A stretch of 44,875 nt of DNA from Gemmatimonadota bacterium (GCA_013002425.1 JABDJQ010000273.1:1-44875), one strand, 5' to 3'. Positions 163 to 34,869 are shown, numbered from the stretch's first letter. Numbers and translations: made by a program. Notes: generated by a model from the sequence alone, not told the origin.

Positions 163-1170
163 ATGAAACGGTTTTACCAGCTTCGTTGTTCCCATGCCGG
201 GCGCGCTCGCGTCAGCGCCTTCGCACTGTTGCTGATCGCGGCCCTCGGGCTCGCGTGCCTCGACGCGGATCCGCTCGATCCGAACGCGAACGAGGCGACC
301 GTTTCCGTTCACCTTACCTATTATAGTGGCGCGGGGCTCGGGCGTACGGGGGATGCTTCGACGGCCGCCGGCAAGTCTACCGTCGTCGATTCCCTCGTGA
401 TCACGGTTTACGACGTGACGCCCGACGTGAACACGAACGAACCAGCCGCGTTTCCGATTGCGGCCACGGCCGTGAATCCTCCGTCGCAGGACGACGCGAC
501 GGGCACGTTCTATGAAGCGAACATGCGGATCGACCTCAGCGAAGAGCGCTTCTATCGCGTGGTGGCTCGCGTCGTCGACCCGAGCGGCCCGGGTGTGCTG
601 ACGGGCGAGCGCACGATCGACCTCGTGCCGGGCGCGACTTCGTTCGTGGCGATGGTGATGACGGCGCCGGGCGTTCCCGCGCCGGGAACGTACGATCTGG
701 CGGTGGTGAAATCGTTTGCGCGGTCGGGAGCGCGGGGCCACGAGATTCCGATCGTGCTGACGAACGCGGATTCGATCGGGGGCATCGAATTCGAGATGAA
801 ATACGACGCGGCGGCGGTCAGCTCGGTGACAGGCATACGTGTCGATCCGTCGAGCCGCCTTTACGTGTCGGACGGAACGGGCGGGAGCCGGCTCATTCCG
901 ACCCGGGTTTCCACGCCGAGCGATTCGACGCTTCGCGTGTTGACGGTCGACCTTTCGGTCGATGGCGATTCACTGACCGCGCCGCTCAGCGTGATCGAGC
1001 CGGGACAGGACCTGCTGTTTTTCGTCGTCGTCGATCTGGCGTCGAACCTCCCCGCGCTGCCGGACACGTTTACGATGGATCTGGGCGGGGTCTTCTTCTC
1101 GACTCCGTCGGGGAGCACGGAAGTCGCCGTTTCGACTCCTCACGACGATATCCTCATCATGACCCCCTGA
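163..1170 (+). CDS. secreted lipoprotein with C-terminal cohesin-like domain
   Basis: The ORF is open from position 1, but the first 54 codons are Arg/Gly-rich junk. ATG 163 gives a signal peptide with a lipobox (MKRFYQLRC...LLLIAALGLAC). The C-terminal ~150 aa match the cohesin pattern (HEIPIVLTNADSIGGIEFEMKYDAAAVSSVTGIRVD...). No clear SD. Confidence 0.6.
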   Translation: MKRFYQLRCSHAGRARVSAFALLLIAALGLACLDADPLDPNANEATVSVHLTYYSGAGLGRTGDASTAAGKSTVVDSLVITVYDVTPDVNTNEPAAFPIAATAVNPPSQDDATGTFYEANMRIDLSEERFYRVVARVVDPSGPGVLTGERTIDLVPGATSFVAMVMTAPGVPAPGTYDLAVVKSFARSGARGHEIPIVLTNADSIGGIEFEMKYDAAAVSSVTGIRVDPSSRLYVSDGTGGSRLIPTRVSTPSDSTLRVLTVDLSVDGDSLTAPLSVIEPGQDLLFFVVVDLASNLPALPDTFTMDLGGVFFSTPSGSTEVAVSTPHDDILIMTP

Positions 1171-1260
1171 CGCGTTTTCGTCACTCCGTGACGCGTTTTC
1201 GTCACTCCGTGACGCGTTTTCGTCACACCGTGACGCGTTTTCGTCACACCGTGACGCGGA
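1168..1260. repeat. 4.4 copies of a 21-bp tandem repeat (TGACGCGTTTTCGTCAC[T/A]CCG), each carrying the dyad GTGACG-N6-CGTCAC
   Basis: Read directly. Units occupy 1168-1188, 1189-1209, 1210-1230 and 1231-1251, with a partial unit at 1252-1260. Two copies have T and two have A at unit position 18. The array starts on the stop codon of the upstream gene and is followed by the palindrome GACGCG-gagag-CGCGTC (1253-1269). Confidence 0.95.
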
Positions 1261-1272
1261 GAGCGCGTCTAA

Positions 1273-1301
1273 TTGCCGCCTTCGGGCATCTCTGTTAGGA
1301 T
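1273..1301 (+). promoter_or_regulatory. possible sigma70-type promoter for the giant gene (TTGCCG-N17-TAGGAT)
   Basis: Hexamers at 1273-1278 and 1296-1301 with 17-nt spacing, immediately downstream of the repeat array and about 25 nt upstream of ATG 1326. Match to consensus is only moderate. Confidence 0.25.
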
Positions 1302-1325
1302 TGAAGGCCCAGGGACGGACAATTC

Positions 1326-4300
1326 ATGAATGGGGTACATGCTCCAGAGGACGTTCCTCGACCCCCGGAAAGTAAAGTAAGTAGCCTCATGCGCCGCCTG
1401 AACCGTGCGATCGCAATTCTTCCACTTCTTGTTGCCCTGATGTCATTGGCGGCGCCGGTTCACGCGCAGCTCTCGGCGCCGGGCAATCTGACGGCGAGCG
1501 TCGACTCGTGCTGGGGGATCGCGCTTTCGTGGGATTCGCAGCCGGCGGCGGATTCGTTCGCCGTTTTCACCGCGGACACGGTTCGCTATTCGCTCACGAA
1601 TTCGTTTCGCGATTCGATTGCCGTGGTCGGCGTGAATACGACGTACTGGGTCGCGGCGATCAACAATCCGGGGGTGGGCGATTCGGCCACGGCGATCGGA
1701 TTTCGCCCGGCGCCGTTCGCAACGGTCCCGGGGTTTACGGCTTCACTCGATCGCTGTGACGGCATATTGCTTTCGTGGACCGACGTTGCGGGCGAAGCGG
1801 GCTACGTTCTTTATCGCGACAGCGTAGAGGTCGATACGCTGCCGCCGAATACGGTTTCCTTTCTCGACGGAACGGCCGCCTCGGGCGATTCGGTTTCGTA
1901 TCGAATCGAGGCGTGGAGTGATTGCGAACCGGCGCCGGTCGCGTCCGGCACGGTGAACGGCTGGCGTAAACCGGCGGCGCCTCCGGTCGTGAGCGGCCTG
2001 GCGGCGACTTCGGATCTCTGCACGGGCATCGAAGTGTCGTGGATCGACGTGCCGCGCGAAGAGGCGTACGTGATCGAGCGCGACGGCGTTCCGATCGACA
2101 CGATCGGCCCGGACCTCACGGTCTATCTCGACGCGAGCGCGTTCTCCGACATTACCTACAATTATCGTGTCGGGCCGTACAACGAGTGCTCCGCATCGCC
2201 GGCATTCGGCCTGTCGATCACGGGACGCCGGTTGCAGCCCGCGCCCGCGGCCCCCTCGAACGTGACGGCGAGCGATACGTCGTGCGCCGTGGTGTTCCTT
2301 TCGTGGAGCCTGTCCGTAACCGACGGCACCTACATTATCTACCGTGACAACATCGCAATCGACACGGTGCCTTCGGCAACCCTCACTTATGTCGATTCCG
2401 TGCCGGGCGGGAGCTACGTGTATGGAGTGGCGGGCGAGAACGCGTGCGGCACGTCGCCCGACAGTACGGTGGCGATCGGCACGGTGCTTCCGGGTCCGCC
2501 CGCGGCTCCGGTCACCTTCACGGCGAGCGACACGTCGTGCAGTGTCGTCGTGCTGGAATGGTCGGCTTCGGTCGACGCGGATTACTACCTCGTGTATCGC
2601 GACGGCGCGCGCATCGATTCGCTCGCGGCCGCGGTTCTCGGCTACCAGGATTCGCCCGGCGGTTCCGGATCCTTTACGTACGGAATTGCGGCCGGAAACG
2701 AATGCGGTGTATCGGACTCGACAGAAGCGAAAGGCGTCGTCCTTCCCGGCGCGCCGGGCGCGATCACGGGTTTCACGGCGGGCGACACGGCGTGCGTGAG
2801 CGTAACGATGAACTGGGACACGGCGGTCGACGCGGACACCGTGTTTCTGCAGCGCGGCGGCGCCGAGATCGCGCAGTTTCTGCTCGGCGAAACCACGTTC
2901 AACGAAGTCGTTCCGCCCGGCGTTTACGAGTATTCGATTTTCGCGGCGAACGAATGCGGGCGTTCGATCACCGTGATCGACAGCGTGGAGGTCTTTCCGC
3001 TGCCCGTTCCGCCGACGGCGCTTGCCGCTTCGATCGACTCGTGCGGACTCGTGCATGTCACGTGGACGGGCGCCGCCGGCGACGCGGGCTATGCCGTGTA
3101 TCGTGAGGACGCTTTTCTCGCGAACGTTACGGATTCGTTCTACGGCGACACGGCCGCGCCGATCGGCGCCTCCACGTACTGGATCGCGACCCTGAACGCA
3201 TGCGGCGCGAGCGACTCGGTTTCCGTTGTCGGAACGCGGCCGCCGGACGCGCCTTCGGCGCCCGCGCTCGCAGCGGCCACGGACGATTCGTGTACAGCCG
3301 TGTTCGTGAGCTGGAGCGCTTCGGCCGACGCGGATTCGTACTTCGTCTATCGCGACGGCGCCGTCATCGCGCGAACCGTTCTGCTCGCGTTCGCCGACAC
3401 GCCGCCGCCGGGCACGTACGATTATGCGGTGGCCGCGGGCAACTCGTGCGGCGTTTCGGATTCGACCGTCGACTCCGGCACGTTGCTGCCGCCGCCTCCG
3501 ATCGCGCCGACGCTTGCGAGCGCGTCGGATTCGCTTTGCGATCGCGTGGAGATCACGTGGGGCGATGTCGCGAACGAAGCGGGCTACGTCGTATACCGAA
3601 ACAGCGTGGTGCTCGATACGGTGCCCGCGAATACCGTGCTGTTCACGGATACGGGGATCGCTCCGGGCGCGTCCTCGAACTACCAGGTCGGCGCCTTCAA
3701 CGCGTGCTCCGCCGGCCCGGCCGTTTCCGGTTCGCTTGCGGGGTCACGCCTTCCCGCGGCGCCTGCCGCCGTGAACGACCTCGTGGCGAGCGACGACTCG
3801 TGCGGAGTGGTGGTGCTCGCATGGACGGACGTGGCGGACGAAGACGGCTACGTGATCGAGCGAGACGGCGCGCCGATCGACACGATCGCCGCGGGCGCAA
3901 CCGGGTATCGCGATTCGCCGGCATCGATCGACGTGGCTCTTTCCTATCGCGTGGGCGTCTTCAACACGTGTTCGGGGGGCGTCATCTTCGGCAACGCGGA
4001 CTTCGGAACGGCGCTCCCGGGGGCTCCCGGCCTGCCTGCGAACGTGCTGGCGACCGACGATTCGTGCGGCGCCGTATACATCACATGGACGCCCGGCGCC
4101 GATATCGACTCGCAGTTCGTGCTCCGGAACGGCGCCATTCTGGAGCGGCTGGGCCCGGCCGACGCGTCGTATCAGGATCTCACCGCGGTGCCTGCCGTCA
4201 CTTATGCATACGCCATTCGCTCGCGGAACGATTGCGGCGCGACGGACTCCGGAGCCGACAACGGAACGCGCCCGCCGGACGCGCCGGTCAGTCCGGCCGG

Positions 4301-7300
4301 TCTTGCGGCGACGCTCGACTCGTGCGCCTACGTGCTGCTTGCGTGGGGCGATGTCGCGGACGAGGACGGCTACACCGTTTATCGCGACAGTACTCCGCTC
4401 TTAACGCTGCCCCCGAATGTCGTTGTCTGGCGCGATTCGTCCGCGCTCCCCGGCGCGACGTACACGTATCAGGTCAGCGCGTTCAACGGTTGCTCGATTG
4501 CTCCCGCGCTTTCCAATACGGCGCAGGGGAGTCGTCCGCCCGTACCGGTTGCCGTGACCGGGCTGTTCGCGACGGACGACGATTGCGACTTCGTGCAGCT
4601 CACGTGGGTGGACGGGACCGACGAATCCGGATACCGCGTCGAGCGTGACGGCGGCGTACTCGTCGACCTGCCGCCCGACGTGACGAGCTTTACGGATTCG
4701 TCGATTCCCGCCGGCACGACGGCGGCGTATCGCGTCGGCGCGCTCGCGCAATGTATTCCCGACGCCGCCTACTCGAGCGAAGCGAACGGAACGCGGCTCG
4801 CGGCCGTTCCGATCGTACCGGCATCCGTTGTGGCGACCGATGATTCGTGCGCCGCGGTTCGCGTAACGTGGAACGCTTCCCCGGGGGCGGACGGTTACGA
4901 AGTGCTGCGCGACGGACTGTTTGCGGGACTCGTGAGCGACGGATCGCTCTTCTTTCGTGACGTGACGCCGCCTCCCGGCGCGTCATTCTATGAAGTACGC
5001 GCGTTGAACGCGTGCGGAACATCAGCCGCGGCCGGGGACAGCGGCGCGGCGGCGGAACCGCCGGCGATACCCGTGATCGACTCCGCGTCGACGGATCGCT
5101 GCGACGGAATCATGATCACCTGGATCGACGTGGCGAACGAAGACGGCTACATCGTTTATCGCAACCTGATCGGCATCGACACGCTTCCCGCCGACGTGAC
5201 TTCGTATCTCGATACCCTCGCGGACGGCGCGCTCCCGACGCTGTATCGCGTGGGCGCGTTCGCGCCCTGTTTCCCCGCGCCGACGCCGTCCAATCCGGCA
5301 CAGGGCGTACGCCTGCCCACGCCCCCCGTCCCCGTGACCGGTCTTGTGGCGACAACGGACCGGTGCGACGGCATTGCCCTGACGTGGGATGATACCGAGG
5401 GAGAGGAGTTCTACATCGTGGCGCGGAACGGATTCGCCATCGCGAATCTGCCCGCGGGATCGGTTTCGCACCTCGACACGACGGCGCTTGCGGGAAGTAC
5501 GAACGACTACCGTGTGGGGGGCGCGAACTTCTGTTCCGGGGGCCTCCCCGTCTACGGCGACAGCGTTCAGGGCTCGCGTCCCTTTGCCGCGCCTGAAGCC
5601 GTGGATTCACTGACGGCGAGTCAGGACTCGTGCGGCGTGATCCGCCTCGAATGGATTGCGCCTGTCGAGAGCGATACGGTTTCGATCGTCCGCGATTTCG
5701 TCGACGAGATCGCGCGGATTCCGGCTGCCGCCGGCTTCTATCGCGACACGAGCTCCGTTACCGGGAGCCCGCTCTACTCGCTGACCGCTCTCAATTCGTG
5801 CGGCGCCTCGAAGCCGGTGCTGATTCAGGGAGCGAGGAAGCCGGACACGCCGCCGCCGCCCGCGACCGTGAGCGCATCGACGGACTCGTGCGACGGCGTT
5901 TTTCTGGCGTGGAGCGATGTCGAGAACGAATTCGGTTACATCATTCTGAGGGGCGGCGTTCTCGTCGATACGGTGCTCGCCGACGTCACTTCCTATGTCG
6001 ACACGACGGCCGCGCCCGGCGTCGATCATTCCTACGAGATCGGGCCGTTCAACGATTGTACGATCACTCCGCTGTTCTCCGCAGCGGTCACAGGCGCGAT
6101 TCTTCCGCCGCCGGTCCCGGTCACGACCCTGACCGCGTCGACCGACAACTGCGCGGGCATTCAGCTTACATGGACGGGAGTCGCGTTCGCGAGCGGATAC
6201 AGCGTGTATCGCGCCGGCGTATTTCTCGATTCGGTCGCGCCGGGCGTCACCGCGTATCTCGATACGGCCGTTGCTTACGGAAGCACGCACAGGTATCAGA
6301 TCGGCTCCTTGAATCGCTGCTCCTTCGGTCCCGTATTCGGCGACACGCTCTCCGGCACACGCCCGTTCGATCAGCCGGATCCGCCTGCGGGGGTCAGCGC
6401 GACCGACGATCTCTGTCAGGTCGTGAACGTCGTGTGGAACGAATCGCCGAACGCGACGAGCTACGTGATCGAGCGCAACGGAAATCAGATCGGCGAAGTA
6501 TTCGATTCGCCTTACTTCTTCACTGACACCTCGGTGCAGCCGGGTTCGTACACGTACGCGGTGAAAGCGCGCAACCTGTGCGGCACGTCCACCGGTTCGG
6601 TCGACACGGGAACGCGGCGCGCGGGTCCGGGCGAGCCGAGCAACCTCACCGCGACGCAGGATCTATGCGAAGGCGTTCGGCTTACATGGTCCGCCGCGGC
6701 GAACGTATCGTCCTACACGATTCGGAGAGGCGGCGTGACGATCGCGACGAATCTGCCCGCGTCCGCGACGACGTATTTCGATGACGGTGCGACCGGCGGC
6801 GTTTCGAGCATCTATACGGTAGAGGCGCTGAACGTCTGCGGCAGTCGCATCTCGGACCCGGGTGTGGTCGGGCGGCGCCTCGCGGGAGCGCCGAGCGGGC
6901 CTTCGAACGTATCGGCGACGGACGGCGGCTGTTCCGAGATTGCGATTACATGGAGCTATTCGGGATCCACGACCTCGCTCGTCGGTTTCCAGATATCGTT
7001 CCGCGATCTGAATACCGGCGGCGTGTACGACTCGATCACCACGCTTCCTGTCAGCAGCAACTCGTTCGTGCATACGCCGCCGCCGGGGAATTACGAATAC
7101 TGGGTCAGCGCGCGCAATCAGTGCGGCAGTTCGCCGCAGACCGACGGAAGCCAGGACGAAGGGGCGATACTCGGCATTCCGCCCGCACCGGCCTGGGACG
7201 CGGCGAGTGATTCCTCGAGCTGCACCGGAGAATCGTTCACACTTCGATGGAACGCGTTGCCGAACGTGCTCGAGTATCGTGTCTCGCAGGGCGGGTTCGT

Positions 7301-10300: not shown

Positions 10301-10799
10301 CGGCCTCGTCTTCTTCTCTCAGAGCGCGGGCACGCTTCGTGTTCTATGGAACGAGGACGCGGGCGCAGACACTTACAGAATTTTCGCTTCGGGCGGTGGC
10401 GCACCGGAAGCGTTGACGGTGCGCGAGCTCCTCGTTACGCTCGGCGACGGCGCGGTGGCCCGTGCGAAGAGCGCGGGCGAGTCGATCGCGGTCACGGGGC
10501 CGCGTCTGCTTCACGTGTCGGGACCCGACGCGAGTCCGAACCCGTTCAACCCCGTGACGACTCTTCGCTATCACGTGCCGGGCGTTTCGGATGTCCTGCT
10601 CGTGATTTACGATTTGTCGGGGCGCGCCGTGCGCACGCTCGAAGCCGGTCGTCGCGCGGCCGGATGGCATGCGCCGGTCTGGGACGGAAAGAGCGACAAT
10701 GGCGAAGCGGTCGCGTCCGGTCTCTACTTCGCGCGTCTCGAAGCGCGCGGCGACGGGCACGACGACACCCGCACTTCGCGCATCGTCCTGATTCGTTGA
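1326..10799 (+). CDS. giant secreted surface protein: ~31 tandem FN3/Ig-like modules + Big_5/SbsA-like Ig domain + dockerin-like segment + FlgD-Ig/T9SS-type C-terminal domain
   Basis: Uninterrupted 9.47-kb ORF (3157 aa). Signal peptide MRRLNRAIAILPLLVALMSLAAPVHA; an alternative start at ATG 1389 would place it at the N-terminus. Contains ~87-aa repeats with conserved D-x-C...W...Y.(V/I)(Y/E)R...Y.Y.V.A.N.CG. C-terminal motifs: APAVLASDP... (Ig), DLNRDGRFGVGDVVLLGKLIV (dockerin EF-hand), PNPFNP...LYFARLEA...RIVLIR (CTD). Confidence 0.93.
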   Translation: MNGVHAPEDVPRPPESKVSSLMRRLNRAIAILPLLVALMSLAAPVHAQLSAPGNLTASVDSCWGIALSWDSQPAADSFAVFTADTVRYSLTNSFRDSIAVVGVNTTYWVAAINNPGVGDSATAIGFRPAPFATVPGFTASLDRCDGILLSWTDVAGEAGYVLYRDSVEVDTLPPNTVSFLDGTAASGDSVSYRIEAWSDCEPAPVASGTVNGWRKPAAPPVVSGLAATSDLCTGIEVSWIDVPREEAYVIERDGVPIDTIGPDLTVYLDASAFSDITYNYRVGPYNECSASPAFGLSITGRRLQPAPAAPSNVTASDTSCAVVFLSWSLSVTDGTYIIYRDNIAIDTVPSATLTYVDSVPGGSYVYGVAGENACGTSPDSTVAIGTVLPGPPAAPVTFTASDTSCSVVVLEWSASVDADYYLVYRDGARIDSLAAAVLGYQDSPGGSGSFTYGIAAGNECGVSDSTEAKGVVLPGAPGAITGFTAGDTACVSVTMNWDTAVDADTVFLQRGGAEIAQFLLGETTFNEVVPPGVYEYSIFAANECGRSITVIDSVEVFPLPVPPTALAASIDSCGLVHVTWTGAAGDAGYAVYREDAFLANVTDSFYGDTAAPIGASTYWIATLNACGASDSVSVVGTRPPDAPSAPALAAATDDSCTAVFVSWSASADADSYFVYRDGAVIARTVLLAFADTPPPGTYDYAVAAGNSCGVSDSTVDSGTLLPPPPIAPTLASASDSLCDRVEITWGDVANEAGYVVYRNSVVLDTVPANTVLFTDTGIAPGASSNYQVGAFNACSAGPAVSGSLAGSRLPAAPAAVNDLVASDDSCGVVVLAWTDVADEDGYVIERDGAPIDTIAAGATGYRDSPASIDVALSYRVGVFNTCSGGVIFGNADFGTALPGAPGLPANVLATDDSCGAVYITWTPGADIDSQFVLRNGAILERLGPADASYQDLTAVPAVTYAYAIRSRNDCGATDSGADNGTRPPDAPVSPAGLAATLDSCAYVLLAWGDVADEDGYTVYRDSTPLLTLPPNVVVWRDSSALPGATYTYQVSAFNGCSIAPALSNTAQGSRPPVPVAVTGLFATDDDCDFVQLTWVDGTDESGYRVERDGGVLVDLPPDVTSFTDSSIPAGTTAAYRVGALAQCIPDAAYSSEANGTRLAAVPIVPASVVATDDSCAAVRVTWNASPGADGYEVLRDGLFAGLVSDGSLFFRDVTPPPGASFYEVRALNACGTSAAAGDSGAAAEPPAIPVIDSASTDRCDGIMITWIDVANEDGYIVYRNLIGIDTLPADVTSYLDTLADGALPTLYRVGAFAPCFPAPTPSNPAQGVRLPTPPVPVTGLVATTDRCDGIALTWDDTEGEEFYIVARNGFAIANLPAGSVSHLDTTALAGSTNDYRVGGANFCSGGLPVYGDSVQGSRPFAAPEAVDSLTASQDSCGVIRLEWIAPVESDTVSIVRDFVDEIARIPAAAGFYRDTSSVTGSPLYSLTALNSCGASKPVLIQGARKPDTPPPPATVSASTDSCDGVFLAWSDVENEFGYIILRGGVLVDTVLADVTSYVDTTAAPGVDHSYEIGPFNDCTITPLFSAAVTGAILPPPVPVTTLTASTDNCAGIQLTWTGVAFASGYSVYRAGVFLDSVAPGVTAYLDTAVAYGSTHRYQIGSLNRCSFGPVFGDTLSGTRPFDQPDPPAGVSATDDLCQVVNVVWNESPNATSYVIERNGNQIGEVFDSPYFFTDTSVQPGSYTYAVKARNLCGTSTGSVDTGTRRAGPGEPSNLTATQDLCEGVRLTWSAAANVSSYTIRRGGVTIATNLPASATTYFDDGATGGVSSIYTVEALNVCGSRISDPGVVGRRLAGAPSGPSNVSATDGGCSEIAITWSYSGSTTSLVGFQISFRDLNTGGVYDSITTLPVSSNSFVHTPPPGNYEYWVSARNQCGSSPQTDGSQDEGAILGIPPAPAWDAASDSSSCTGESFTLRWNALPNVLEYRVSQGGFVVSTVDTSFAFVRSQTGDYNFTVTAFTACGPGSASTLFPVTVLASPSPPTNVSASQDSCGFIDLVWQNGTDSRVWIASAGDTAFLGAGVQSWRDDHPDGGPRSYHVGGYNACGTLGSTTLLTGFAFPDFLPAPDSVHATDGLCDSVIVTWTYEAPLEPVQDFRVIRYDGASATTIAFLSSDDVYRVVDTPPDAASRRYGVQAENRCALSIATEDFGRANRTPGIPIWTAEVGDACQSASFSLRWQAVSGAGSYEVFRDGSLIATVLQPSLRLSVFETGEFEFRVRAVSDCGPGPLGESQLVRVVDLPAVPLDVRIDSSYCDSVHVTWSPQLDSIRVTRSDRVDPVYVGAGNGFATDFPVKGVTYRVRSFNGCGESEEVTVTLGRPLIRPPAPVAVTASNTLCDSVVITWSMPQSQIVLSGFEISRTRNDSTTIVANSLAPSLRRFVDRGGVGLYEYRIVATNECGVSLDVETARDFGSFRPAFLATNFSSESDSVGCRGSNIELVWEPDPDALFYNVWETGDEIPVAVVAGSNSSASLLVTSIGDRSYELQSVGVCGDGLRSAPWLVRVGETPVRLSGLRASDDLCGAVRLDWNRSASVMEEVRVYRSGEWIASASPTDTTFMDESVALGETYEYFVVGASRCGTAGASPVAEGSALRGLTSPVLSGPPSGATNLPIPVTMSWTPVPAAIGYYLEVQDPDVSEIVLDSLLPASPSVTIGGLSLGERYLWRVATVDDCGPGIPSAWRNFQTIQSAPAVLASDPASFATGVALDANVRVVFSLPIDPASLSGAQLFRGDTEVPVSRRLETEGSVLVVDPVDSLRFNTTYSLLVGGLRDIFGQGLGGTAPITFTTAPAPRPVGDVDIDFQRTPADVARAADIVLGRVNPAEYDVGEIDLNRDGRFGVGDVVLLGKLIVKEGVVLLPDFSKSAPHAIRFASEPSDGRADADGYALRLTLEGDASRSTFLSLAWPEDAGRVTAIERLQNVNVVQSAGEGQNTNAEGGLVFFSQSAGTLRVLWNEDAGADTYRIFASGGGAPEALTVRELLVTLGDGAVARAKSAGESIAVTGPRLLHVSGPDASPNPFNPVTTLRYHVPGVSDVLLVIYDLSGRAVRTLEAGRRAAGWHAPVWDGKSDNGEAVASGLYFARLEARGDGHDDTRTSRIVLIR
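1470..9551 (+). repeat. coding tandem array of ~31 FN3/Ig-like modules (~87 aa / ~261 nt each) with a conserved cysteine pair
   Basis: Repeat boundaries counted by hand in the translation: 8082 nt / 31 = 87 aa. Modules fall into recurring three-module super-repeats (see findings). Confidence 0.85.
9877..10050 (+). other. dockerin-like duplicated Ca-binding segment inside the giant protein
   Basis: GDVDIDFQRTPADVARAADIVLG ... EIDLNRDGRFGVGDVVLLGKLIV. The second segment fits D-x-N-x-D-G-x5-D plus helix. The first is degenerate. Confidence 0.55.
10535..10796 (+). other. FlgD-Ig / T9SS type-A-like C-terminal sorting domain of the giant protein
   Basis: PNPFNPVTTLRYHVPGVSDVLLVIYDLSGRAVRTL...WDGKSDNGEAVASGLYFARLEA...RIVLIR matches the well-known CTD pattern (PNPFNP, IYD..G, WDG, G.Y...L). 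Confidence 0.7.
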
Positions 10800-10818
10800 C
10801 CCTGGAGTTTGCTCTGCA

Positions 10819-12744
10819 ATGAACTGGATTCTCTGGGGCATTTTCTCGGGCCTGCTGCTTCGGGCCGGGGAGCTTTCGGTACTCGGCCGCTCGATACGGA
10901 TCGGCCCCGGCGATTTCCTGATCGGACTCGCGGGGACGGTATTCGGTTCACTCTTTCTCTTCCTGGCGATCGGGCTCATTCTCCGCGGGGTTGCGGTTCT
11001 GCTGAAGCGCGACTGGTTCGCGAATGCCGGCGATCGATTCCTTCTCGCGCTGCTGCAGGCGGCTCTATTCTTCACGATCTGGTGGGCGCTTCGCGCGGAC
11101 CTCTTTACTCTCGCCGGAAGCGGTACCGGCAAGTTGCTGTTCGGGGCCATGCTGCTGGCGTCGTGCGCGCTCTTCTTCGTTCTGCGTCCCGCGCTCGAAC
11201 GTATACCCGCGCAGATTCCGGCGGCGCTGCTGCTCGTGGCGGGCGCGGGGCTCGCGATGGCGGGAACGTTCGGGCCGGTACGGTTCGCCCCCGAGAAGAC
11301 GGCCGACGCGGGAACGGTCGAGGGGGGCGCGCCCGACACGGTCGTAGCGGAAACCGGCGGCCGGCCGAATATCGTTCTCATTCTGATCGACACGCTCCGC
11401 GGGGATCGCCTGCAGTTCGACCGCAAGGTGACGCGCAATCCGAGCCTCGCGAAACTCGCGCGTACTTCCGTTCGCTACACGAAGGCACGTTCGACGAACA
11501 GCTGGACCGCGCCCTCCGTCGCCGGAATCCTGACTTCGCGGTATCCGTCGCAGCACGGCGTGCATCACGGCACGGCGCGTCTGCCCGAGCGCGAACTGTC
11601 GTTCGTCGAGACGCTGCAGCAGAGCGGGTATCGCACGGCCGCCGTGACGGCGAACAGCGTGATCGGCAGAGACTTCGGCTTCGCACAGGGTTTCGACTTC
11701 TACCTCGACACGAAGAACGCGTTCCCGTTCGGCTTCTTTCTCGATCAGCTTTCGCGGCTCTGGAAAATGCGATTCGAAAAGGGAAGTCAGCCCGAAGTGC
11801 AGGCGTTCTTTCATCGCGTCACCCGCTACTACCAGCACGCGGAGCAGGTCACGCGGAACGCGCGTGCGGTGGCCGACGGTCTCGCCGAAGAAGCGGAGCC
11901 GTTCTTCCTGCTCGTGCACTACATGGACCCGCATCGGCCGTACCGCGCTCCGCTCCGCTACTGGCGCGACGAAGATGCGGAATACGACGGTCCCGTGAAC
12001 GGCTTCGAATACATGAAGTACGACGAAAGCGCGGGCGCGTTTCGCGTGGGCGGCGTGAAGCTCGGGCCCGATGACGTAGCGCAGTTCGTGCGCCTCTACG
12101 ACGCGGAGATCCGGCACGTCGACGACGCGATCGGGAGTTTCGTCGCGGGGCTCAAGAGCGCCGGCGTTTTTGAAGAGAGCTACGTCATGGTGACGGCCGA
12201 CCACGGCGAGTACTTCGGGGAGCACGGTCTTTCCGCGCACTCGGACGTATATGCGCCCTGCATCGACGTGCCCCTTCTCGTTCGCCCGCCCGGGGGCGCG
12301 GCGCAGTCCACTTATAACGAGTACGTGCAGACGCGCCAGATCCCGGCAACGGTGCTCGCGTGGTCGGGGCAGGGCGACGCGGCCGCTGCCATGGAGGCGC
12401 CCCCGATTCCGTTTCCGGCTCTCGGCACCGGTGAGCCGATCGATCATGTTTTCGTCGAAGCCGAGGACGGCCCGACCGGGTTTCGACGCTCGGTCGAGCG
12501 CGACGACTGGAAGCTGATTCGCGGCGCGAACGGCCAGGAGCTGTACGATCGCGGCGCTGATCCGGGCGAAGTCACGAACCTGTTCGCGCTCGTGGAAAGC
12601 GACGCCGCCCTGCAGCGCACGTATCAAACGCTCGATTCGCTTTTGATTTCGTTCGAGGAAGCGATGCGGGTGTTCGGCGGGTCCGGCGAGAGCATGACGG
12701 CCGAGCAGGAAGAGGCGCTTCGCGCGCTCGGATACCTCGACTAG
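10819..12744 (+). CDS. membrane-anchored sulfatase-like (alkaline phosphatase superfamily) hydrolase/transferase
   Basis: N-terminal ~170 aa contain several hydrophobic helices. The catalytic domain starts PNIVLILIDTLRGDRL. The nucleophile region SWTAPSVAGILTSRYPSQHGV aligns to the sulfatase C-x-P-x-R box but reads T-x-P-x-V. Later motif: MVTADHGEYFGEHG. Confidence 0.85.
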   Translation: MNWILWGIFSGLLLRAGELSVLGRSIRIGPGDFLIGLAGTVFGSLFLFLAIGLILRGVAVLLKRDWFANAGDRFLLALLQAALFFTIWWALRADLFTLAGSGTGKLLFGAMLLASCALFFVLRPALERIPAQIPAALLLVAGAGLAMAGTFGPVRFAPEKTADAGTVEGGAPDTVVAETGGRPNIVLILIDTLRGDRLQFDRKVTRNPSLAKLARTSVRYTKARSTNSWTAPSVAGILTSRYPSQHGVHHGTARLPERELSFVETLQQSGYRTAAVTANSVIGRDFGFAQGFDFYLDTKNAFPFGFFLDQLSRLWKMRFEKGSQPEVQAFFHRVTRYYQHAEQVTRNARAVADGLAEEAEPFFLLVHYMDPHRPYRAPLRYWRDEDAEYDGPVNGFEYMKYDESAGAFRVGGVKLGPDDVAQFVRLYDAEIRHVDDAIGSFVAGLKSAGVFEESYVMVTADHGEYFGEHGLSAHSDVYAPCIDVPLLVRPPGGAAQSTYNEYVQTRQIPATVLAWSGQGDAAAAMEAPPIPFPALGTGEPIDHVFVEAEDGPTGFRRSVERDDWKLIRGANGQELYDRGADPGEVTNLFALVESDAALQRTYQTLDSLLISFEEAMRVFGGSGESMTAEQEEALRALGYLD

Positions 12745-12760
12745 GTGCTATAGTTCGAAC

Positions 12761-15700
12761 ATGAACCGATTGCCGCCTTTTCGCGCCGTGTCCCGTCGCT
12801 CTGCGAATCTGCTGCGAATTTTTTGTCCGGCGTTCTCCGCGCTCTTTCTGTGCGGGGCTGTCGCGACTGCGCACGACCTTCCCTCCGGCTTCACTCTTCT
12901 CGACGACTCTCCTCAAGGCCTCACATTTCGATACGACGCGCCGGAATGGACACGTCGATCCGTCGACCTGGATGGCGGGGGGCGCGCCACGCTGCTTGCG
13001 GCGCCCGGCTGGACTCCGGGCGAGGACGAAGGTCGGCCTGCGTTTCCCGCCGCGTCGATTCCGATTGCCCTGCCGCCGGGCGGAACGGTGCGTGTCGAAA
13101 TCGTGTCGGAACGGGTGCGCTCTCCCGGTTCGTACACGGCGCCGTTCGGAAGCGGGCGGCCTCACGCGCCGTATAATGAGAAAGGCGCCGCCGGTCAGCG
13201 CCCGTGGGCGCGTGTTGCGAAGCCGGGGCACGTCCGCGATCAGCGTGTCGCTTCGCTCGTAATCGAACCGGTCCGCTTCGTGTCCGACACCGGCGCGAAG
13301 CCCGGCACGCAACGCCGGGTCGAAGAACTGGAACGCGCGACGATTCGAGTGACGTTCGAGGGCGGCGGGGAGAAACCGCCGGCAACATCGGGCGATCCGC
13401 TGCACGCAGAGTCGCACGAGCGGCGCAATTCGGCTTTATCGAATCGAGAGGCGCTCTACCGCGCGCTGACCGTGAACCATGAAACCGGCCGCGCGTGGCG
13501 GGCGGAGGCGTCCGGTCGACGCGGCGGCGCGGGTGCCGGCGCAAACGTTGCGAACGTCGCGCGCGCCCGCGCGCTGCGTGACGGCGACTCGTTTTCGTCG
13601 AGTCCGGACTGGTTGAAGCTCACCGTGTCCGAGCGCGGCATGACGCGCGTGACGTATCAGGACTTTCTCGATGCGGGGCTTCTGAACCCGCGCAATGCGG
13701 TGGGCGATCCGCGCACTCTTCGCATGTACACGGGCTCCGCGCGTGAACTTCCCGAGTCGATCGCCGTGCCGCGCCCGGACTGGATGGACCAGACCGCGAT
13801 TCTCGTGGCGGGCGGTGACGACGGCACGTTCGACCCGGGCGACGCCGTCGAGTTTTACGCGCTCCCGCCTGACGACTTTGCGGACTACTTCGATCCCGCC
13901 GCGCCCGACCCGGACGAGTGGGTGTTTCATCGCTACGCGGACGACGGCGTCTACTGGCTCACCTGGGGGGGCGAATTCGAGGAGCCCGCGGAACGAATGG
14001 TGAGCGTAAATCCGGCGGGCGCCGGGAGAGGGTCGGGCGGGAACGACACGCGCGGGCAGGAAGCCGCTGCCGCCGCGCACACGTTTCGCGCCCGCGCGCA
14101 CTATGAGGAGAACCGCTCCTTTCATGACGAGACACGGTTCGGAACGGACCTCTACTTCTACGACCTGCTCACGAGATCCCGCCCCGACAAGACGTATCGT
14201 CTCGCGGAGCTGACGCACGCGGACACCGCCTCGCCCGGGTTGCTTCGCGTTCACGTGATCCATGCCGTGAACGAAAGAACGGGCGACAACGGGGGCAGCC
14301 AGGAAGTTCGTTACACGATGAACGAGGGCGAACCGGCTCTCGCACAATGGAACAGCGACGCGATCGAAGAGGGGGCGATCGTGTCTCCGATCCTGCTCGA
14401 CTCCTCCGTGACGGTCGTGAACGGCCCGAACCGCGTGCGTCTCGAGGCGCTCCGGCGGGCGGACCTCTGGCTCGACTGGATCGAGATCTTCTACGATCGT
14501 TTCTTCGAGGCCGACAGCGGGTCGCTCGCGTTCACTCTCGAAGCGGGAAGCCACGCCCTTTCGCTCGGAGGGCTCTCTGAGAACGCGCGGGTCTTCGACG
14601 TGACGAACAGGCTCGCGCCACGCGAATGGACGGGCGCGGCGCACACGGAGGGACGGCTCGGGTTCACGGCAGATGTCTCCGCCCGAACACACGCCATCGC
14701 TCTCGATCAGGGCGCGTGGCCGGCTCCGGCTGCGATCGAGCTCACGCGCCCCGAAGACCTGCGCGCCGAAAGAGAAGGCGCGGAGTATGTCACGATCGCG
14801 GGCGAATTCTTCTTCGAAGAAGTCGAAACGCTCTTGCGCCATCGCGGTCTCGCTTACTCGACGCTGGTCGCGCGGGTATCCGATATCTTCGACGTCTACT
14901 CCTTCGGATTGCGCGACCCCGTCGCGATTCGTGACTTTCTCGCGAGCGCGTACGCTTCGTGGGACACACGCCCGCTCTTCGTGCTGCTCGCGGGAGACGC
15001 GACGAGTGACATCGCGGACAGACTCACCGGTGTGAGTAATCGCAACGATCTCCCGTCGTTTCCCGAACTCGACAGGCGCGGCCGGGAGGACTTCACGTTT
15101 CGAACCGATGACTTCTACTCCCTCGTCCACCCCGACACGATAGACGACGCGCTTCCCGATCTCGCGATCGGCCGGCTGCCCGCCCGGAACGAAGCGGAGC
15201 TTTCCACGATGCAGAAGAAGATCGTGGCTTACGATATCGCGCCGCCGTTCGGCGCCTGGAAGAACGAAACGCTCGTGCTCGCCGACGACCATCTGAAGGG
15301 ATCGTCCACCGAGGGAGACTGCGCGTTTCAGGGGGCGCACACGGAAGACAGCGAGAAGATCGCGCGCCGCCTTCCCGGATCGTTCGTGAAGCCGCGGATC
15401 TACCTGACGGAGTACGAGATCGGGAACAACGGCGAAAAACCGGAGGCGACGGCGGATCTGCTCGAACGCATGAACGACGGATTTCTCGTGAGCAGCTATA
15501 TCGGAAACGGCGGCTTCGACAGGATGACGGACGAGAATCTGCTTTCGCTCGGGGCGCTGCCGGCCGACGGGTTCGCCAACGAGGGCAGGGAATACCTGTT
15601 CACCGCCTGGACCTGTGATGTCGGTAGCTTCGATCTGCTGAGCGGAGAGTCGCTGAGCGAGCGGTTGATCGCGATGGAAGCGGGGGGCGCTCTTGCGGCG

Positions 15701-17035
15701 TATGCCGCCAACGCCTGCACGTTCGGCAACCTGTCGAGCGCTCTCGCTTTCGATTTCTTCGGCGCGCTCTTTCCCGCGCCGCACCAGACCATTGCCCTCG
15801 GCCTGGCGGGCATGATCGCGAAGGCGAACGCGAGCCATTCGCAGAGCTTTCTGCTGAACGCGCGCAAGTATCATCTGCTCGGCGATCCGGCGATGGAACT
15901 CGCGATTCCGCGTCTCGCGATCGATCTCGGCGACACGCTCGCTTTCGAGGCCGGCACGGTCTCGTCGCTGGCGGGAGCGATCGTTGATGAATCGGGTGAA
16001 GTCGTCTCTTCGTTCAGCGGGGAAGCGCGCGTGACCGTTCACGAAGTGTCGGACACGTCGGGCTTTCGTTATATCGACTCGCTCTGCTCCCCGTCTCCCT
16101 GGCCGGAGCGCAGCGTCGAGTACACGCTCACCGGCGAAGCCGTCTACGCCGCCACGCTTCCCGTCGTGAACGGGCGTTTCGCGACCGAGTTCGTCGCGCC
16201 GCTCGCCGCGCGGACCGGCTCGCTCGCCCGCGTTTCGGCCTACGCATCTTCGCCCGCGTTGCAGGTCGACGCGTCGGGCGGCACCGACTCGGCCGCGATC
16301 ACGCCCGCGCCGGACACGTTCCCGTACGACGATTCGGATCCGCCGCGCGTCACGCTCGCATTCGCAAGCGCCGGTGGTTCGGATCCGGCGCCGATCACGC
16401 TCACGACACCGATCGAAATCACGGTGCGCGACACGAGCGGCATCGACGTTCTGCAGTCAGACCCGTTTTATCAGATGCACGCGCGCGTCGACGGCGGCGA
16501 CCCGATTCCTCTGCTGCCGTTCTTCGCCGTCGATCCCGCGAGCTTCCGCACGGGGCGCGCCCGATTCACGCTGGCCGAGCTCGCCGCTCCGGCAACCCTC
16601 CCGCTCGGCGAGCACGAACTCGCGTTCGTATTCGCGGACGCGCGCGGGAACCGCGGCGAAACGATCCGGCGCGTGCGCGTCGTCTCCGATGAAGGGACGT
16701 TCGGCTTCATGCAGGACATCCTGAGCTATCCGAACCCGTTCGATCCGGAGCGCGAAGAGTCTGTTTTCTATACGGATTTCGGTTCGATCGGCGAGTTGAC
16801 GATCGAGATCTTCACGGTGAACGGGCGGAGAGTGCGCGTGTTTCGCGAATGCATCGCGGCGGGCGCGGAGAAGCTGAACTGCGCGTGGGACGGGCGGGAT
16901 GCGGACGGCGATCTCGTGGCGAACGGCGTGTATGTCGTGCGCGCCGCCGCCGTTTCGGCCGACGGCAGCGAACGCGACGAATCCCTCGGGAGAATAGTCG
17001 TATTGCGCCAGGGGGATCGCCGCATTCGCCGGTAG
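12761..17035 (+). CDS. peptidase C25 (gingipain/PorU-like) family protein with FlgD-Ig/T9SS-type C-terminal domain
   Basis: 1424-aa ORF with a signal peptide. The core aligns to gingipain R (NDGFLVSSYIGNGGFDRM ~ NQGISLINYTGHGSETAW; LFTAWTCDVGSFD ~ FIFDVACVNGDF; HLLGDPAMEL ~ TVFGDPSLLV). C-terminal motif: YPNPFDP...WDGRDADGDLVANGVYVVR...RIVVLR. Confidence 0.88.
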   Translation: MNRLPPFRAVSRRSANLLRIFCPAFSALFLCGAVATAHDLPSGFTLLDDSPQGLTFRYDAPEWTRRSVDLDGGGRATLLAAPGWTPGEDEGRPAFPAASIPIALPPGGTVRVEIVSERVRSPGSYTAPFGSGRPHAPYNEKGAAGQRPWARVAKPGHVRDQRVASLVIEPVRFVSDTGAKPGTQRRVEELERATIRVTFEGGGEKPPATSGDPLHAESHERRNSALSNREALYRALTVNHETGRAWRAEASGRRGGAGAGANVANVARARALRDGDSFSSSPDWLKLTVSERGMTRVTYQDFLDAGLLNPRNAVGDPRTLRMYTGSARELPESIAVPRPDWMDQTAILVAGGDDGTFDPGDAVEFYALPPDDFADYFDPAAPDPDEWVFHRYADDGVYWLTWGGEFEEPAERMVSVNPAGAGRGSGGNDTRGQEAAAAAHTFRARAHYEENRSFHDETRFGTDLYFYDLLTRSRPDKTYRLAELTHADTASPGLLRVHVIHAVNERTGDNGGSQEVRYTMNEGEPALAQWNSDAIEEGAIVSPILLDSSVTVVNGPNRVRLEALRRADLWLDWIEIFYDRFFEADSGSLAFTLEAGSHALSLGGLSENARVFDVTNRLAPREWTGAAHTEGRLGFTADVSARTHAIALDQGAWPAPAAIELTRPEDLRAEREGAEYVTIAGEFFFEEVETLLRHRGLAYSTLVARVSDIFDVYSFGLRDPVAIRDFLASAYASWDTRPLFVLLAGDATSDIADRLTGVSNRNDLPSFPELDRRGREDFTFRTDDFYSLVHPDTIDDALPDLAIGRLPARNEAELSTMQKKIVAYDIAPPFGAWKNETLVLADDHLKGSSTEGDCAFQGAHTEDSEKIARRLPGSFVKPRIYLTEYEIGNNGEKPEATADLLERMNDGFLVSSYIGNGGFDRMTDENLLSLGALPADGFANEGREYLFTAWTCDVGSFDLLSGESLSERLIAMEAGGALAAYAANACTFGNLSSALAFDFFGALFPAPHQTIALGLAGMIAKANASHSQSFLLNARKYHLLGDPAMELAIPRLAIDLGDTLAFEAGTVSSLAGAIVDESGEVVSSFSGEARVTVHEVSDTSGFRYIDSLCSPSPWPERSVEYTLTGEAVYAATLPVVNGRFATEFVAPLAARTGSLARVSAYASSPALQVDASGGTDSAAITPAPDTFPYDDSDPPRVTLAFASAGGSDPAPITLTTPIEITVRDTSGIDVLQSDPFYQMHARVDGGDPIPLLPFFAVDPASFRTGRARFTLAELAAPATLPLGEHELAFVFADARGNRGETIRRVRVVSDEGTFGFMQDILSYPNPFDPEREESVFYTDFGSIGELTIEIFTVNGRRVRVFRECIAAGAEKLNCAWDGRDADGDLVANGVYVVRAAAVSADGSERDESLGRIVVLRQGDRRIRR

Positions 17036-17695: not shown

Positions 17696-18169
17696 ATGAA
17701 GTACTACAGAATGCTACCGGTTCTGCTTCTGCTGCTGTCCTGCTCCAGCCGTTACTCGCAGACCGAAACGACACGAAGCGAAATCGACGAATCATACTCG
17801 ACCTCCACCACCATTCCCGTAGGGGTGGATGACGAAGACAAGCTCTCGTTCGCGTCGCGAGCCGCCACCGAGGGCAGGTGGATGGAATCGATTCACTCCT
17901 ATCAGGGCGTATACGACAACACGAAAGCTTCCTCGGAAGACCGCTCCCGCGCGCTGCTCGGGCTCGGCGACGTGTGGTCGAATCCGGTCAATCCGTTCCG
18001 CGACTTCGGCACGTCGCTCTTCTACCTGAACAAGGTCGCGACGGAATTCCCCGACGCGGCGGTTCGTCCGAAGGCGGAGAAGAAGATCGCGACCGTTCGG
18101 ATCATGATGGAAGAAGTCGAGAACGCCACGCGCGACCAGCTGATCGAATCGCAGCACACGAGCGACTAG
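17696..18169 (+). CDS. lipoprotein, possibly TPR-like
   Basis: MKYYRMLPVLLLLLSCSS has a lipobox. The longer track ORF (17558) adds an implausible Arg-rich extension. Function is not recognisable beyond a helical repeat-like C-terminal half. Confidence 0.6.
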   Translation: MKYYRMLPVLLLLLSCSSRYSQTETTRSEIDESYSTSTTIPVGVDDEDKLSFASRAATEGRWMESIHSYQGVYDNTKASSEDRSRALLGLGDVWSNPVNPFRDFGTSLFYLNKVATEFPDAAVRPKAEKKIATVRIMMEEVENATRDQLIESQHTSD

Positions 18170-18271
18170 ACCCGCCCGCGGCCGGCAGCGCTTTTGTACA
18201 CGCGTTTTACCCGCGCCCCCCTCGAGCCGCGATACGATCGGACCGAATCTGAAAAGAGGAGGAGGTCCGCA

Positions 18272-18541
18272 GTGTCTGTCCGTCTGTCCGCACGCATGCA
18301 GCGCAATCTGGCTTTCGGAGCGTTCCTGCTTCTGCTCGGCGCCTGTTCGCGCGACGTTCCGCCCGAGCCCCTGGTGTTCGAAGGGATGGCAGCATACGAC
18401 GATACGACAGCGGAGTTTCCCCGGGTTCGTTACGAAGACGGCACGCTGTCGATGAACGACCGCTGTATCGTTCGCCAGGTCAAGCTGAACCGCAAGATGG
18501 GCGCCGTGTATGTGAACGGGCGCCCGATCGGATTCTGCTGA
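18272..18541 (+). CDS. lipoprotein, N-terminal part of a YHS/TRASH-like protein; ends at an in-frame TGA inside the domain
   Basis: GTG 18272 lies 7 nt after AGGAGGAGG. Signal and lipobox: (M)SVRLSARMQRNLAFGAFLLLLGAC. Ends ...DRCIVRQVKLNRKMGAVYVNGRPIGFC-TGA. It is in the same frame as 18563-18907. Confidence 0.7.
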   Translation: MSVRLSARMQRNLAFGAFLLLLGACSRDVPPEPLVFEGMAAYDDTTAEFPRVRYEDGTLSMNDRCIVRQVKLNRKMGAVYVNGRPIGFC

Positions 18542-18543
18542 AC

Positions 18544-18570
18544 TCCGTGCGTCAAGGTCTTCGTGCAGGA
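18544..18570 (+). promoter_or_regulatory. RNA hairpin 3 nt downstream of the in-frame UGA (candidate bacterial SECIS-like element)
   Basis: Hand-folded pairs: U44-A70, C45-G69, C46-G68, (A67 bulged), G47-C66, U48-G65, G49-U64, C50-G63, G51-C62. The 10-nt loop is UCAAGGUCUU, with GGU about 18 nt after the U of UGA. No energy calculation was possible. Confidence 0.3.
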
Positions 18571-18907: not shown

Positions 18908-18962
18908 CGCCGCTTGACGGGAACGCGCCCTCTCTGGAAAGATCCCGGTGAGAGGTGCTGAA

Positions 18963-21462: not shown

Positions 21463-21515
21463 CACCCTCGCGATGTGGTATCGTGGGATCGCATCCGCAA
21501 CGGAGTGGAGGTGCC

Positions 21516-27559: not shown

Positions 27560-27572
27560 CGGAGAGAGCCTT

Positions 27573-31182: not shown

Positions 31183-31242
31183 GGAAGCTTCAAGATACCA
31201 TGGAAAGTTCGCAATGCCTGACGAGTTTGCTACAGTGGCGCC

Positions 31243-34641: not shown

Positions 34642-34869
34642 TGCCTGCGTCCTTGCGTGCGGCCGCTTCTTTCGCGGCCCCTTGAGTCTGCGATGCACAA
34701 CTGCCACGAGTATTGCAGATCCGGGCGGTTCGTGACCAACCGAGCCGGAAGATCGACAATCCGCCCCGCAGCGCGTGGTATCCGATCGATCGTATCGGAA
34801 TGACGCCGTTTCCGGTTGGAATATATACGGTAACTAATTGATATACATGGAGTTATAAGGGCGACCGTT

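Follow-up and report, generated by a model that had tools for sequence, protein, structure and literature searches.

Conserved pairing of a predicted cohesin lipoprotein with a dockerin-bearing giant protein in Candidatus Eisenbacteria, joined in one genus by an AP-superfamily enzyme and a PorU paralogue lacking its catalytic His

The window analysed here, a stretch of 44,875 nt, is contig C468 of the Candidatus Eisenbacteria metagenome-assembled genome (MAG) G000 (83% complete, 830 contigs). It carries four plus-strand open reading frames (ORFs) at 163-1170, 1326-10799, 10819-12744 and 12761-17035, separated by intergenic gaps of 155, 19 and 16 nt. A preliminary description of the window had taken these co-directional genes for one surface-assembly unit; the ORFs and the short last two gaps were confirmed, and the locus now appears to consist of two layers. 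The first two genes encode a lipoprotein with a predicted cohesin domain and a giant secreted protein with a predicted dockerin ahead of a type IX secretion system (T9SS)-type C-terminal domain (CTD), and this pair is conserved in the family. The other two genes encode an alkaline phosphatase (AP)-superfamily membrane enzyme and a PorU paralogue, and follow the giant gene only in this genus. We therefore favour, and regard as reasonably probable, a reading in which an old cohesin-dockerin surface-anchor cassette was extended by a genus-specific AP enzyme and a pseudo-sortase. The features of the old pair are as follows.

163-1170, plus strand: lipoprotein of 335 aa with signal peptide, lipobox Cys32, N-terminal beta-sandwich and predicted C-terminal cohesin
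256, plus strand: lipobox Cys32 (alignment of relatives)
292-663, plus strand: N-terminal beta-sandwich domain of the lipoprotein (AlphaFold2 model)
685-1167, plus strand: predicted cohesin domain, residues 175-335 (family Pfam matches, family profile, AlphaFold2 and Foldseek)
1326-10799, plus strand: giant secreted protein of 3157 aa with signal peptide, about 30 modules, Big_5 domain, predicted dockerin, linker and T9SS-type CTD
1473-9515, plus strand: about 30 Fn3/Ig-like modules of about 87 aa each, with one Cys pair per module
9555-9854, plus strand: Big_5 Ig-like domain, residues 2744-2843 (PF13205, E 2.6e-14)
9876-10052, plus strand: predicted dockerin module, residues 2851-2909 (alignment, PF00404, profile against the PDB)
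10536-10796, plus strand: T9SS-type CTD of the FlgD_ig type, residues 3071-3157 (PF13860, 39.4 bits)

The cohesin-like domain that had been noticed on the lipoprotein was confirmed by family-level evidence, with three independent lines establishing a cohesin: Pfam matches within the family, retrieval by a family profile, and the modelled fold. The family comprises eight proteins in a collection of 5.8 billion, all from Eisenbacteria-like MAGs, and a single-sequence search with the lipoprotein returned just three relatives. Taken individually, seven of the eight members match Pfam Cohesin, with a best E of 2.2e-5; for one, PF00963 is also a precomputed annotation. When run against 1.84 billion representatives, the family profile retrieved proteins that match in multiple stretches at E 4e-16 to 1e-5; three to six Pfam Cohesin domains (E 1e-39 to 1e-81) were present in seven of the eight such proteins checked, and some of the retrieved multi-cohesin proteins also contain SLH domains, a dockerin or a Por_Secre_tail domain. 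The AlphaFold2 model of the lipoprotein, built on a 17-sequence alignment, reached a pLDDT of 80.9 and a pTM of 0.77 (an earlier model from a 4-sequence alignment, pLDDT 45, was unusable). Its top 14 Foldseek matches in the PDB are all cohesins (E 3e-7 to 2e-5, probability 1.00), the best being mostly type I cohesins from solved cohesin-dockerin complexes. The target TM-score was 0.62-0.82 in 13 of these 14 matches and 0.74-0.82 in 11, the entry of a two-cohesin dyad scoring 0.27. The top five matches of the cohesin profile to PDB sequences were also all cohesins, at E values of 0.14-0.4 that are not significant alone. Furthermore, the lipobox Cys is invariant in 16 of 16 full-length aligned relatives, paralogues included, within the motif C-L-D-A-D/G-P. 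The acidic residues that follow the lipid-modified Cys (C-L-D-A-D-P) presumably resemble the export signal of Bacteroidota surface lipoproteins.

In the giant protein, a real two-loop dockerin ahead of the T9SS-type CTD is likewise confirmed by evidence at the level of the family. A dockerin-like EF-hand pair had been placed at 9877-10050 and was found at 9876-10052. This segment reads GDVDIDFQRTPADVARAADIVLGR...DLNRDGRFGVGDVVLLGKLIV and includes two 12-residue Ca-binding loops, DVDIDFQRTPAD and DLNRDGRFGVGD, with a helix after each. Acidic ligands (Asp/Asn) occupy positions 1, 3, 5 and 12 in both loops; the ligand positions are kept in most aligned dockerin segments, and a few segments have one ligand substitution. 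The alignment holds nine segments, from seven orthologues of the giant (that of the window included) and two paralogues, and Dockerin_1 was matched by eight of them (best E 1.5e-6). Compared with the PDB, the profile of these segments found solved type I dockerins (best E 2.2e-6), and its top 19 matches are dockerin modules or dockerin-bearing proteins, 15 of them at E < 0.01.

About 160 residues separate the dockerin of the giant from its CTD, which scores 39.4 bits with PF13860 (cut-off 27), 16.6 bits with TIGR04183 (cut-off 23) and 15.6 bits with CHU_C. The same CTD type also ends PorU itself and 50-100 proteins per genome. The FlgD-Ig/T9SS-type CTDs formerly assigned to both large proteins thus hold as FlgD_ig matches, of which the second, on the PorU paralogue, remains at 25.2 bits under the 27-bit cut-off, while TIGR04183 stays sub-threshold for the giant. 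The approximately 30 modules upstream contain 60 Cys in total. Orthologues of the giant occur in all nine genomes of the family and aligned over the whole 508-residue C-terminal query. The annotated start of the giant, ATG at 1326, is not conserved and reads CAG in the sister species G001; translation probably begins at the next ATG (1332) or at Met22 (MRRLNR..., nt 1389), the latter immediately ahead of the signal peptide.

The collection searched contains only 10 species genomes of the Eisenbacteria phylum; G001 is 95% complete in 10 contigs. The cohesin-lipoprotein gene lies immediately upstream of the giant gene in the window genome, G001, G003, G004, G005, G008 and one Logan contig. Counted by genera, the pair is adjacent in five, linked in a sixth, and placed on two contig ends in a seventh (G006), where the lipoprotein gene is at the end of one contig and the giant gene at the start of another. 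This adjacency persists across genera although the cohesin-lipoproteins are just 41-52% identical. Moreover, the genus has a second, paralogous cassette (G001:C10, L097 8428-13676; G000:C219 3-5086). In G001:C10, a cohesin-lipoprotein paralogue of 303 aa is encoded by a gene that shares 4 nt (ATGA) with the start of the next one, which encodes a cargo of 1446 aa; this cargo contains PapD/ASH-type Ig repeats, a Dockerin_1 match above the cut-off (25.3 bits) and a FlgD_ig CTD. A third cohesin-lipoprotein ORF was seen in G000 at a contig end (C696 2801-3823). In all, one genome of this genus holds two to three cohesins and three dockerin proteins, which leaves few alternative partners. That adjacency persists at such low identity, and that the two genes were duplicated jointly, are the chief grounds for regarding the neighbours as cognate partners. 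From sequence and gene order we infer that lipoprotein and giant form a conserved unit of cognate partners, in keeping with the earlier suggestion of a matched cohesin and dockerin encoded side by side.

The remaining two genes have the following features.

10819-12744, plus strand: membrane-anchored AP-superfamily (sulfatase-fold) enzyme of 641 aa (Pfam Sulfatase, hydropathy)
10819-11283, plus strand: four to five N-terminal transmembrane helices (hydropathy)
11365-12369, plus strand: AP catalytic domain (Sulfatase domain, E 2e-42)
11506-11508, plus strand: Thr230 at the formylglycine Cys position (alignment with choline sulfatase)
12761-17035, plus strand: PorU paralogue of 1424 aa (Peptidase_C25 E 2e-57, NF033707)
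14786-15901, plus strand: C25 domain (Pfam)
15506-15508, plus strand: Asn916 (AAC) at the catalytic His position (alignment)
15614-15616, plus strand: Cys952, the retained catalytic Cys (alignment)
16727-17005, plus strand: FlgD_ig CTD of the PorU paralogue (PF13860, 25.2 bits, under the 27-bit cut-off)

The AP enzyme and the PorU copy after the giant are shared only with G001, where synteny with the window extends over all four genes and those downstream, and with the Logan contig, where the AP gene follows the giant gene and the PorU orthologue is on the same contig. In G006 and G003 the giant gene is directly followed by a homologue of the window gene at 17792-19060, with no AP enzyme or PorU gene between. 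This implies that a segment of about 6.2 kb (10800-17035) was inserted in the ancestor of the genus. Rather than belonging to the old unit, the AP enzyme and the C25 gene joined it recently and in this genus alone. Gene-neighbourhood comparison, which the preliminary description had proposed, thus upheld the cohesin-dockerin pair and confined the other two genes to the genus.

These data bear on the reading with which the locus was first described, namely that all four genes constitute one dedicated surface-assembly unit in which an active, cargo-specific C25 sortase covalently attaches the giant and the cohesin-dockerin contact serves as a second anchor. The 19- and 16-nt gaps among the last three genes and the synteny of all four in the sister species speak for a single unit, and the PorU copy scores above the NCBIfam cut-off and retains its catalytic Cys, as an active sortase would. 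Nevertheless, the AP enzyme and the PorU copy are not found at the locus in any other genus, none of the three orthologues has the catalytic His and that of G001 has lost the Cys too, an intact PorU with a PorV-like neighbour is encoded elsewhere in the genome, and the window copy evolves faster than this housekeeping one. We consider this reading very unlikely.

In detail, the window copy covers positions 3-1095 of the NF033707 model and scores 427.2 bits (427.9 when the genome was searched; cut-off 420), and reads GNG where other copies read GHG. Its Logan orthologue also has Asn for His and keeps the Cys; in the G001 orthologue both catalytic residues are replaced, His by Arg and Cys by Ser. 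Among 120 PorU homologues, the dyad is H/C in 115 and H/S in two, and the His is missing only from the three window-type orthologues. The two H/S homologues, P0087 and P0096 from metagenomes, retain the His and carry Ser at the position of the catalytic Cys; such variants may be inactive or may use Ser as the nucleophile. The housekeeping PorU of G000 is encoded on C626 (542 bits), where the next gene downstream is PorV-like; C784 encodes a third C25 protein. A search of the window contig yielded no PorV-like match.

In a maximum-likelihood (ML) tree the window copy and its G001 orthologue are sister to the housekeeping PorU of the genus (SH-aLRT 99), on a long stem and with terminal branches about three times longer than those of the housekeeping PorU. 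The second copies carried by G002, G007 and G008 group apart from these, in a clade whose dyad is intact. A single old PorU2 clade uniting them with the window copy, considered on account of a shared 'C-D' motif, was rejected because the tree places the window copy beside the housekeeping PorU of its own genus. The second PorU genes of G002 (C39, L040 9677-16142) and G007 (C80, L042 8962-14300), with His and Cys intact, are preceded by a Wzi-like capsule-assembly gene and face an SLT-LysM transglycosylase gene and one to three Sulfatase+TPR genes. A general link between AP enzymes and extra PorU copies was also discarded, as these neighbours in G002 and G007 are of the soluble Sulfatase+TPR type and convergent, beside the SLT-LysM and Wzi genes.

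Selection was assessed on gene pairs of G000 and G001, as the ratio of nonsynonymous to synonymous substitution rates (dN/dS), together with protein identity. The window PorU copy gave a dN/dS of 0.25 at 68-69% identity, the housekeeping PorU 0.13 at 87%, and the cohesin-lipoprotein, the giant and the AP enzyme 0.12-0.18 at 84-87%. A decaying pseudogene was rejected, since the frame of the PorU copy is intact in three genomes and its dN/dS of 0.25 indicates purifying selection. With its catalytic residues lost, the copy is unlikely to be a dedicated working sortase as first proposed, and hence two anchoring modes for the giant are not shown. Most likely it is a pseudo-sortase that does not catalyse; it might serve as a scaffold, for instance, or bind CTDs or PorV without cleaving. 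In the catalytic porU mutant C690A of P. gingivalis, cargo with uncleaved CTDs stays bound to PorV (PMC5562754). This behaviour makes a role of the window copy as a non-cleaving scaffold or receptor plausible.

For the AP enzyme, a hydropathy scan (window 19, cut-off 1.6) flagged five overlapping windows within residues 31-155 that amount to four distinct hydrophobic segments, and a short fifth one at residues 3-15 was read by eye. The best solved relatives are choline sulfatases (E 5e-20). However, T-A-P-S-V of the enzyme aligns with C-A-P-A-R of choline sulfatase, with Thr230 in place of Cys and Val in place of Arg, and CxPxR is not present. Thr also occupies the nucleophile site in the aligned orthologue and paralogues, and the aligned Eisenbacteria paralogues share T-x-P/S-S (W-T in most), DT(L/V/M)R and DHGE. 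The replacement of Cys by Thr implies that the enzyme is not a formylglycine sulfatase, so that its designation as a non-sulfatase member of the AP superfamily stands in the sense that it is no canonical sulfatase. Against curated models it scored 24.8 bits (YejM), 20.3 bits (P_eth_NH2_trans) and 12.3 bits (LtaS), with cut-offs of 500-970, and its matches to the EptA, LtaS and YejM models had E values of 6e-6 to 0.09. It thus appears to be an LtaS/EptA-type transferase in architecture only, the family models being unmatched. Our best guess, held with low confidence, is that it transfers a phospho group onto the fibre or an envelope glycan. Its closest orthologue, in G006 (44% identity), is encoded behind the gene of a T9SS cargo of 635 aa that is unrelated apart from a shared CTD; this is suggestive, though a single case.

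Taken together, the old cassette would comprise an outer-membrane lipoprotein with a single type-I-like cohesin and a rod of about 3000 residues built from approximately 30 disulfide-braced Fn3/Ig modules. For export the giant would use Sec first and the SprA translocon next, with its CTD as the signal, and its membrane-proximal dockerin would bind the cohesin encoded by the neighbouring gene in a Ca-dependent manner. The base of the fibre would thereby be tethered to a lipid-anchored partner, so that cohesin and dockerin, here non-cellulosomal, would anchor a fibrillar adhesin at the surface. The first added gene would contribute a membrane-anchored AP enzyme with a Thr nucleophile and LtaS/EptA-like architecture. 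The second would contribute a duplicate of the genus's own PorU that has lost its His (in the sister species also its Cys) and is kept under purifying selection, and CTD cleavage, if any, would be left to the intact PorU encoded on C626. Domain identities, synteny, catalytic residue loss and selection were read directly from the genomes; from them we infer the binding itself, exposure at the surface, and what the AP enzyme and the dead PorU do.

Components of the export route were found in the genome. SprA was matched at 232 and 286 bits (cut-off 200), and the PorV-like gene beside the C626 PorU scored 105 bits, below the cut-off of 250, so that a translocon SprA, a sortase PorU and a PorV-like shuttle gene are all present. 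The core T9SS genes that the preliminary description had suggested looking for are therefore represented in this part, and PorK, PorL and PorM went undetected in searches that had no T9SS-positive control.

Several points count against the proposed anchor. Taken by themselves, the modules of the window score low: the lipoprotein reaches 15.9 bits with PF00963 as a whole and 17.3 bits as the domain alone (cut-off 24.1), with the match limited to profile positions 17-56 of 139, and the giant reaches 13.7-14.3 bits with PF00404 (cut-off 22.9), its match spanning profile positions 2-52 of 57. The pair is not always contiguous, its members being about 7 kb apart in G002 with unrelated minus-strand genes between. 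A third dockerin-bearing T9SS cargo of 1641-1684 aa (G000:C276 2279-7201, minus strand; G001:C1, L091 9238-14289) is without an adjacent cohesin. The lipoprotein may not be surface-exposed, and the cohesin-dockerin interaction could be periplasmic. In the window PorU copy, Asn could in principle support some Cys-based chemistry. The models for GldM (TIGR03517, PF12081), GldK (TIGR03525) and GldL (TIGR03513) were unmatched in G000 and G001, with controls that did not include a known T9SS genome. Finally, every genome compared is a MAG, that of the window being 83% complete in 830 contigs.

As to the secretion machinery, TIGR03517 and TIGR03513 had no match in the control genomes, and PF12081 and TIGR03525 had two sub-cut-off control matches each. 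Lacking a T9SS-positive control, these searches do not show absence of PorK, PorL and PorM, and with these undetected the export route is not fully established. The PorKLMN ring/motor is either too divergent for models trained on Bacteroidota or missing. T9SS is treated as a feature of Bacteroidota or of the Fibrobacterota-Chlorobiota-Bacteroidota (FCB) group, and PMC11285876 names several FCB phyla, Eisenbacteria not among them. The CTD of the giant may serve solely as an export signal.

The third cargo and the split pair of G002 would also be expected if the two modules do not bind each other, their adjacency reflecting inherited synteny or co-regulation, and the dockerin being a Ca-binding structural element or binding another partner, for instance a cohesin on other cells, with cell-cell aggregation as the outcome. 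In the third cargo, the C-terminal region is 31-33% identical to that of the giant, and in G001 the roughly 9 kb upstream of it and 6 kb downstream contain no cohesin gene; adjacency is thus not obligatory. The genes between the G002 pair (C106, L063 1300-8000, minus strand) encode a lysine-2,3-aminomutase, a GNAT+deacetylase fusion and an ATP-grasp protein (D-Ala-D-Ala-ligase-like), and look like a pathway for a beta-lysine-derived compatible solute inserted into the pair. Such absence of binding is difficult to reconcile with adjacency kept at 41-52% lipoprotein identity, with a paralogous cassette duplicated as a pair, and with the small number of alternative partners per genome. We regard it as unlikely.

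Another explanation places the cohesin lipoprotein in the periplasm, as a dedicated chaperone or pilot that holds the C-terminal region of the giant before or during T9SS export. Lipoproteins of diderm bacteria often face the periplasm, the dockerin lies close to the export signal, and the genes are tightly coupled (in the paralogous pair they overlap by 4 nt), as is typical for a chaperone and its substrate. To our knowledge, all cohesin-dockerin systems described work extracellularly (PMC8542988), and the invariant acidic C-L-D-A-D-P, which we take to be akin to the Bacteroidota surface-lipoprotein export signal, points outward too. Both speak against a pilot, which in our judgement is improbable.

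A bolder version of the surface anchor than the one we favour would make the locus a new attachment module, operating with a PorKLMN that is undetectable. Here, for at least part of the T9SS cargo of Eisenbacteria, the lipoprotein's cohesin would capture the pre-CTD dockerin instead of, or besides, sortase linkage to lipopolysaccharide, and in this genus the dead PorU would act as a non-cleaving receptor for CTDs or PorV, and the AP enzyme would be a transferase modifying the fibre or its anchor. We hold this combination to be quite unlikely.

The two-layer locus that we propose resembles known systems in parts. Non-cellulosomal cohesin and dockerin modules were surveyed by Peer et al. 2009 (cited in PMC8542988). 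As in the type I cohesin-dockerin systems of Clostridia, the predicted cohesin fold has its best matches among type I cohesins of solved complexes, the giant shows the duplicated 12-residue Ca loop plus helix of cellulosomal dockerins, and the partner modules are on separate secreted proteins. Unlike those systems, the host here is an FCB-group diderm. A single cohesin on a small lipoprotein stands in place of a multi-cohesin scaffoldin that is SLH- or sortase-anchored; the dockerin is internal on a non-enzymatic Fn3/Ig rod of 3157 aa, 160 residues before a T9SS CTD; and carbohydrate-active enzymes are not involved.

Closer in lineage are Cloacimonadota MAGs (Ca. Stygibacter), for which a cellulosome-like system of cohesins and dockerins with a T9SS CTD has been inferred (PMC8542988). 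The assertion that the combination seen here is not a described system was accordingly too strong. Both hosts belong to candidate phyla of the FCB group known from MAGs only, and both combine cohesin and dockerin with a T9SS CTD. In Ca. Stygibacter, however, a 3755-aa scaffoldin bears tandem cohesins and the CTD and the enzymes bear dockerins (PMC8542988), whereas here the roles are reversed, with the dockerin on the CTD-bearing giant and a single cohesin on the lipoprotein, and the pair consists of adjacent, conserved genes. Judged from its predicted domains, the present arrangement thus appears inverted and minimal in comparison: a single-cohesin lipoprotein and a dockerin on a T9SS giant, in a duplicated two-gene cassette. 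A gene pair of lipoprotein-cohesin and dockerin-cargo was not found described in the literature searched on cohesin, dockerin, T9SS and Eisenbacteria.

In P. gingivalis, PorU belongs to the attachment complex PorU-PorV-PorQ-PorZ (PMC5562754, PMC8545088). The window copy shares with it the full-length architecture, the C25 domain and an own CTD, and its genome also encodes SprA and a PorV-like protein. It differs in its active site, where two orthologues have Asn instead of His and the third Arg (the latter also Ser instead of Cys), in having no adjacent PorV, and in being a genus-specific duplicate that evolves about three times faster. By analogy, its closest functional counterpart may be the laboratory mutant porU C690A, with cargo on PorV and the CTD uncleaved. 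The AP enzyme, for its part, is like LtaS, EptA (MCR) and OpgB in its four to five transmembrane helices before an extracytoplasmic AP-fold domain, its Thr nucleophile and its metal ligands DT..D and DHGE, but unlike them it groups by sequence with true sulfatases (choline sulfatase, E 5e-20).

Elsewhere in the window, a minus-strand polysaccharide cluster at 25940-34707 encodes a Wzx-type flippase, a sulfotransferase-GT2 fusion, a further sulfotransferase and a membrane P450, which suggests that a sulfated surface glycan is made near the surface-protein locus. The minus-strand ORFs 19349-20380 and 20335-21567 have no Pfam match and gave dN/dS values of about 0.9-1.2 against their G001 counterparts despite 65-67% identity; these ORF calls are therefore probably wrong in frame or strand. 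One further feature lies between the stop of the lipoprotein gene and the promoter-like site of the giant.

1171-1256, plus strand: four tandem 21-bp hairpin units

The unit reads ACGCGTTTTCGTCAC[T/A]CCGTG and forms a 6+6 hairpin each time, followed by T-rich sequence. In the same intergenic region of G001 the promoter-like TTGCCG-N17-TA(G/A)GAT is kept and the 21-bp hairpin array is missing. This implies that the array is a species-specific expansion and not a conserved operator.

All of these genes are known from MAGs of an uncultured phylum, and the functions proposed for them are accordingly conditional. The PorU copy would represent a natural counterpart of porU C690A kept by selection, which suggests that sortase paralogues may have non-catalytic roles in the attachment complex. 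The cohesin-dockerin pair, present twice per genome, constitutes a concrete and cheaply testable candidate for non-covalent anchoring of T9SS cargo outside Bacteroidota and, if the proposed anchor is true, would extend cohesin-dockerin biology to the fibrillar adhesins of diderm bacteria.

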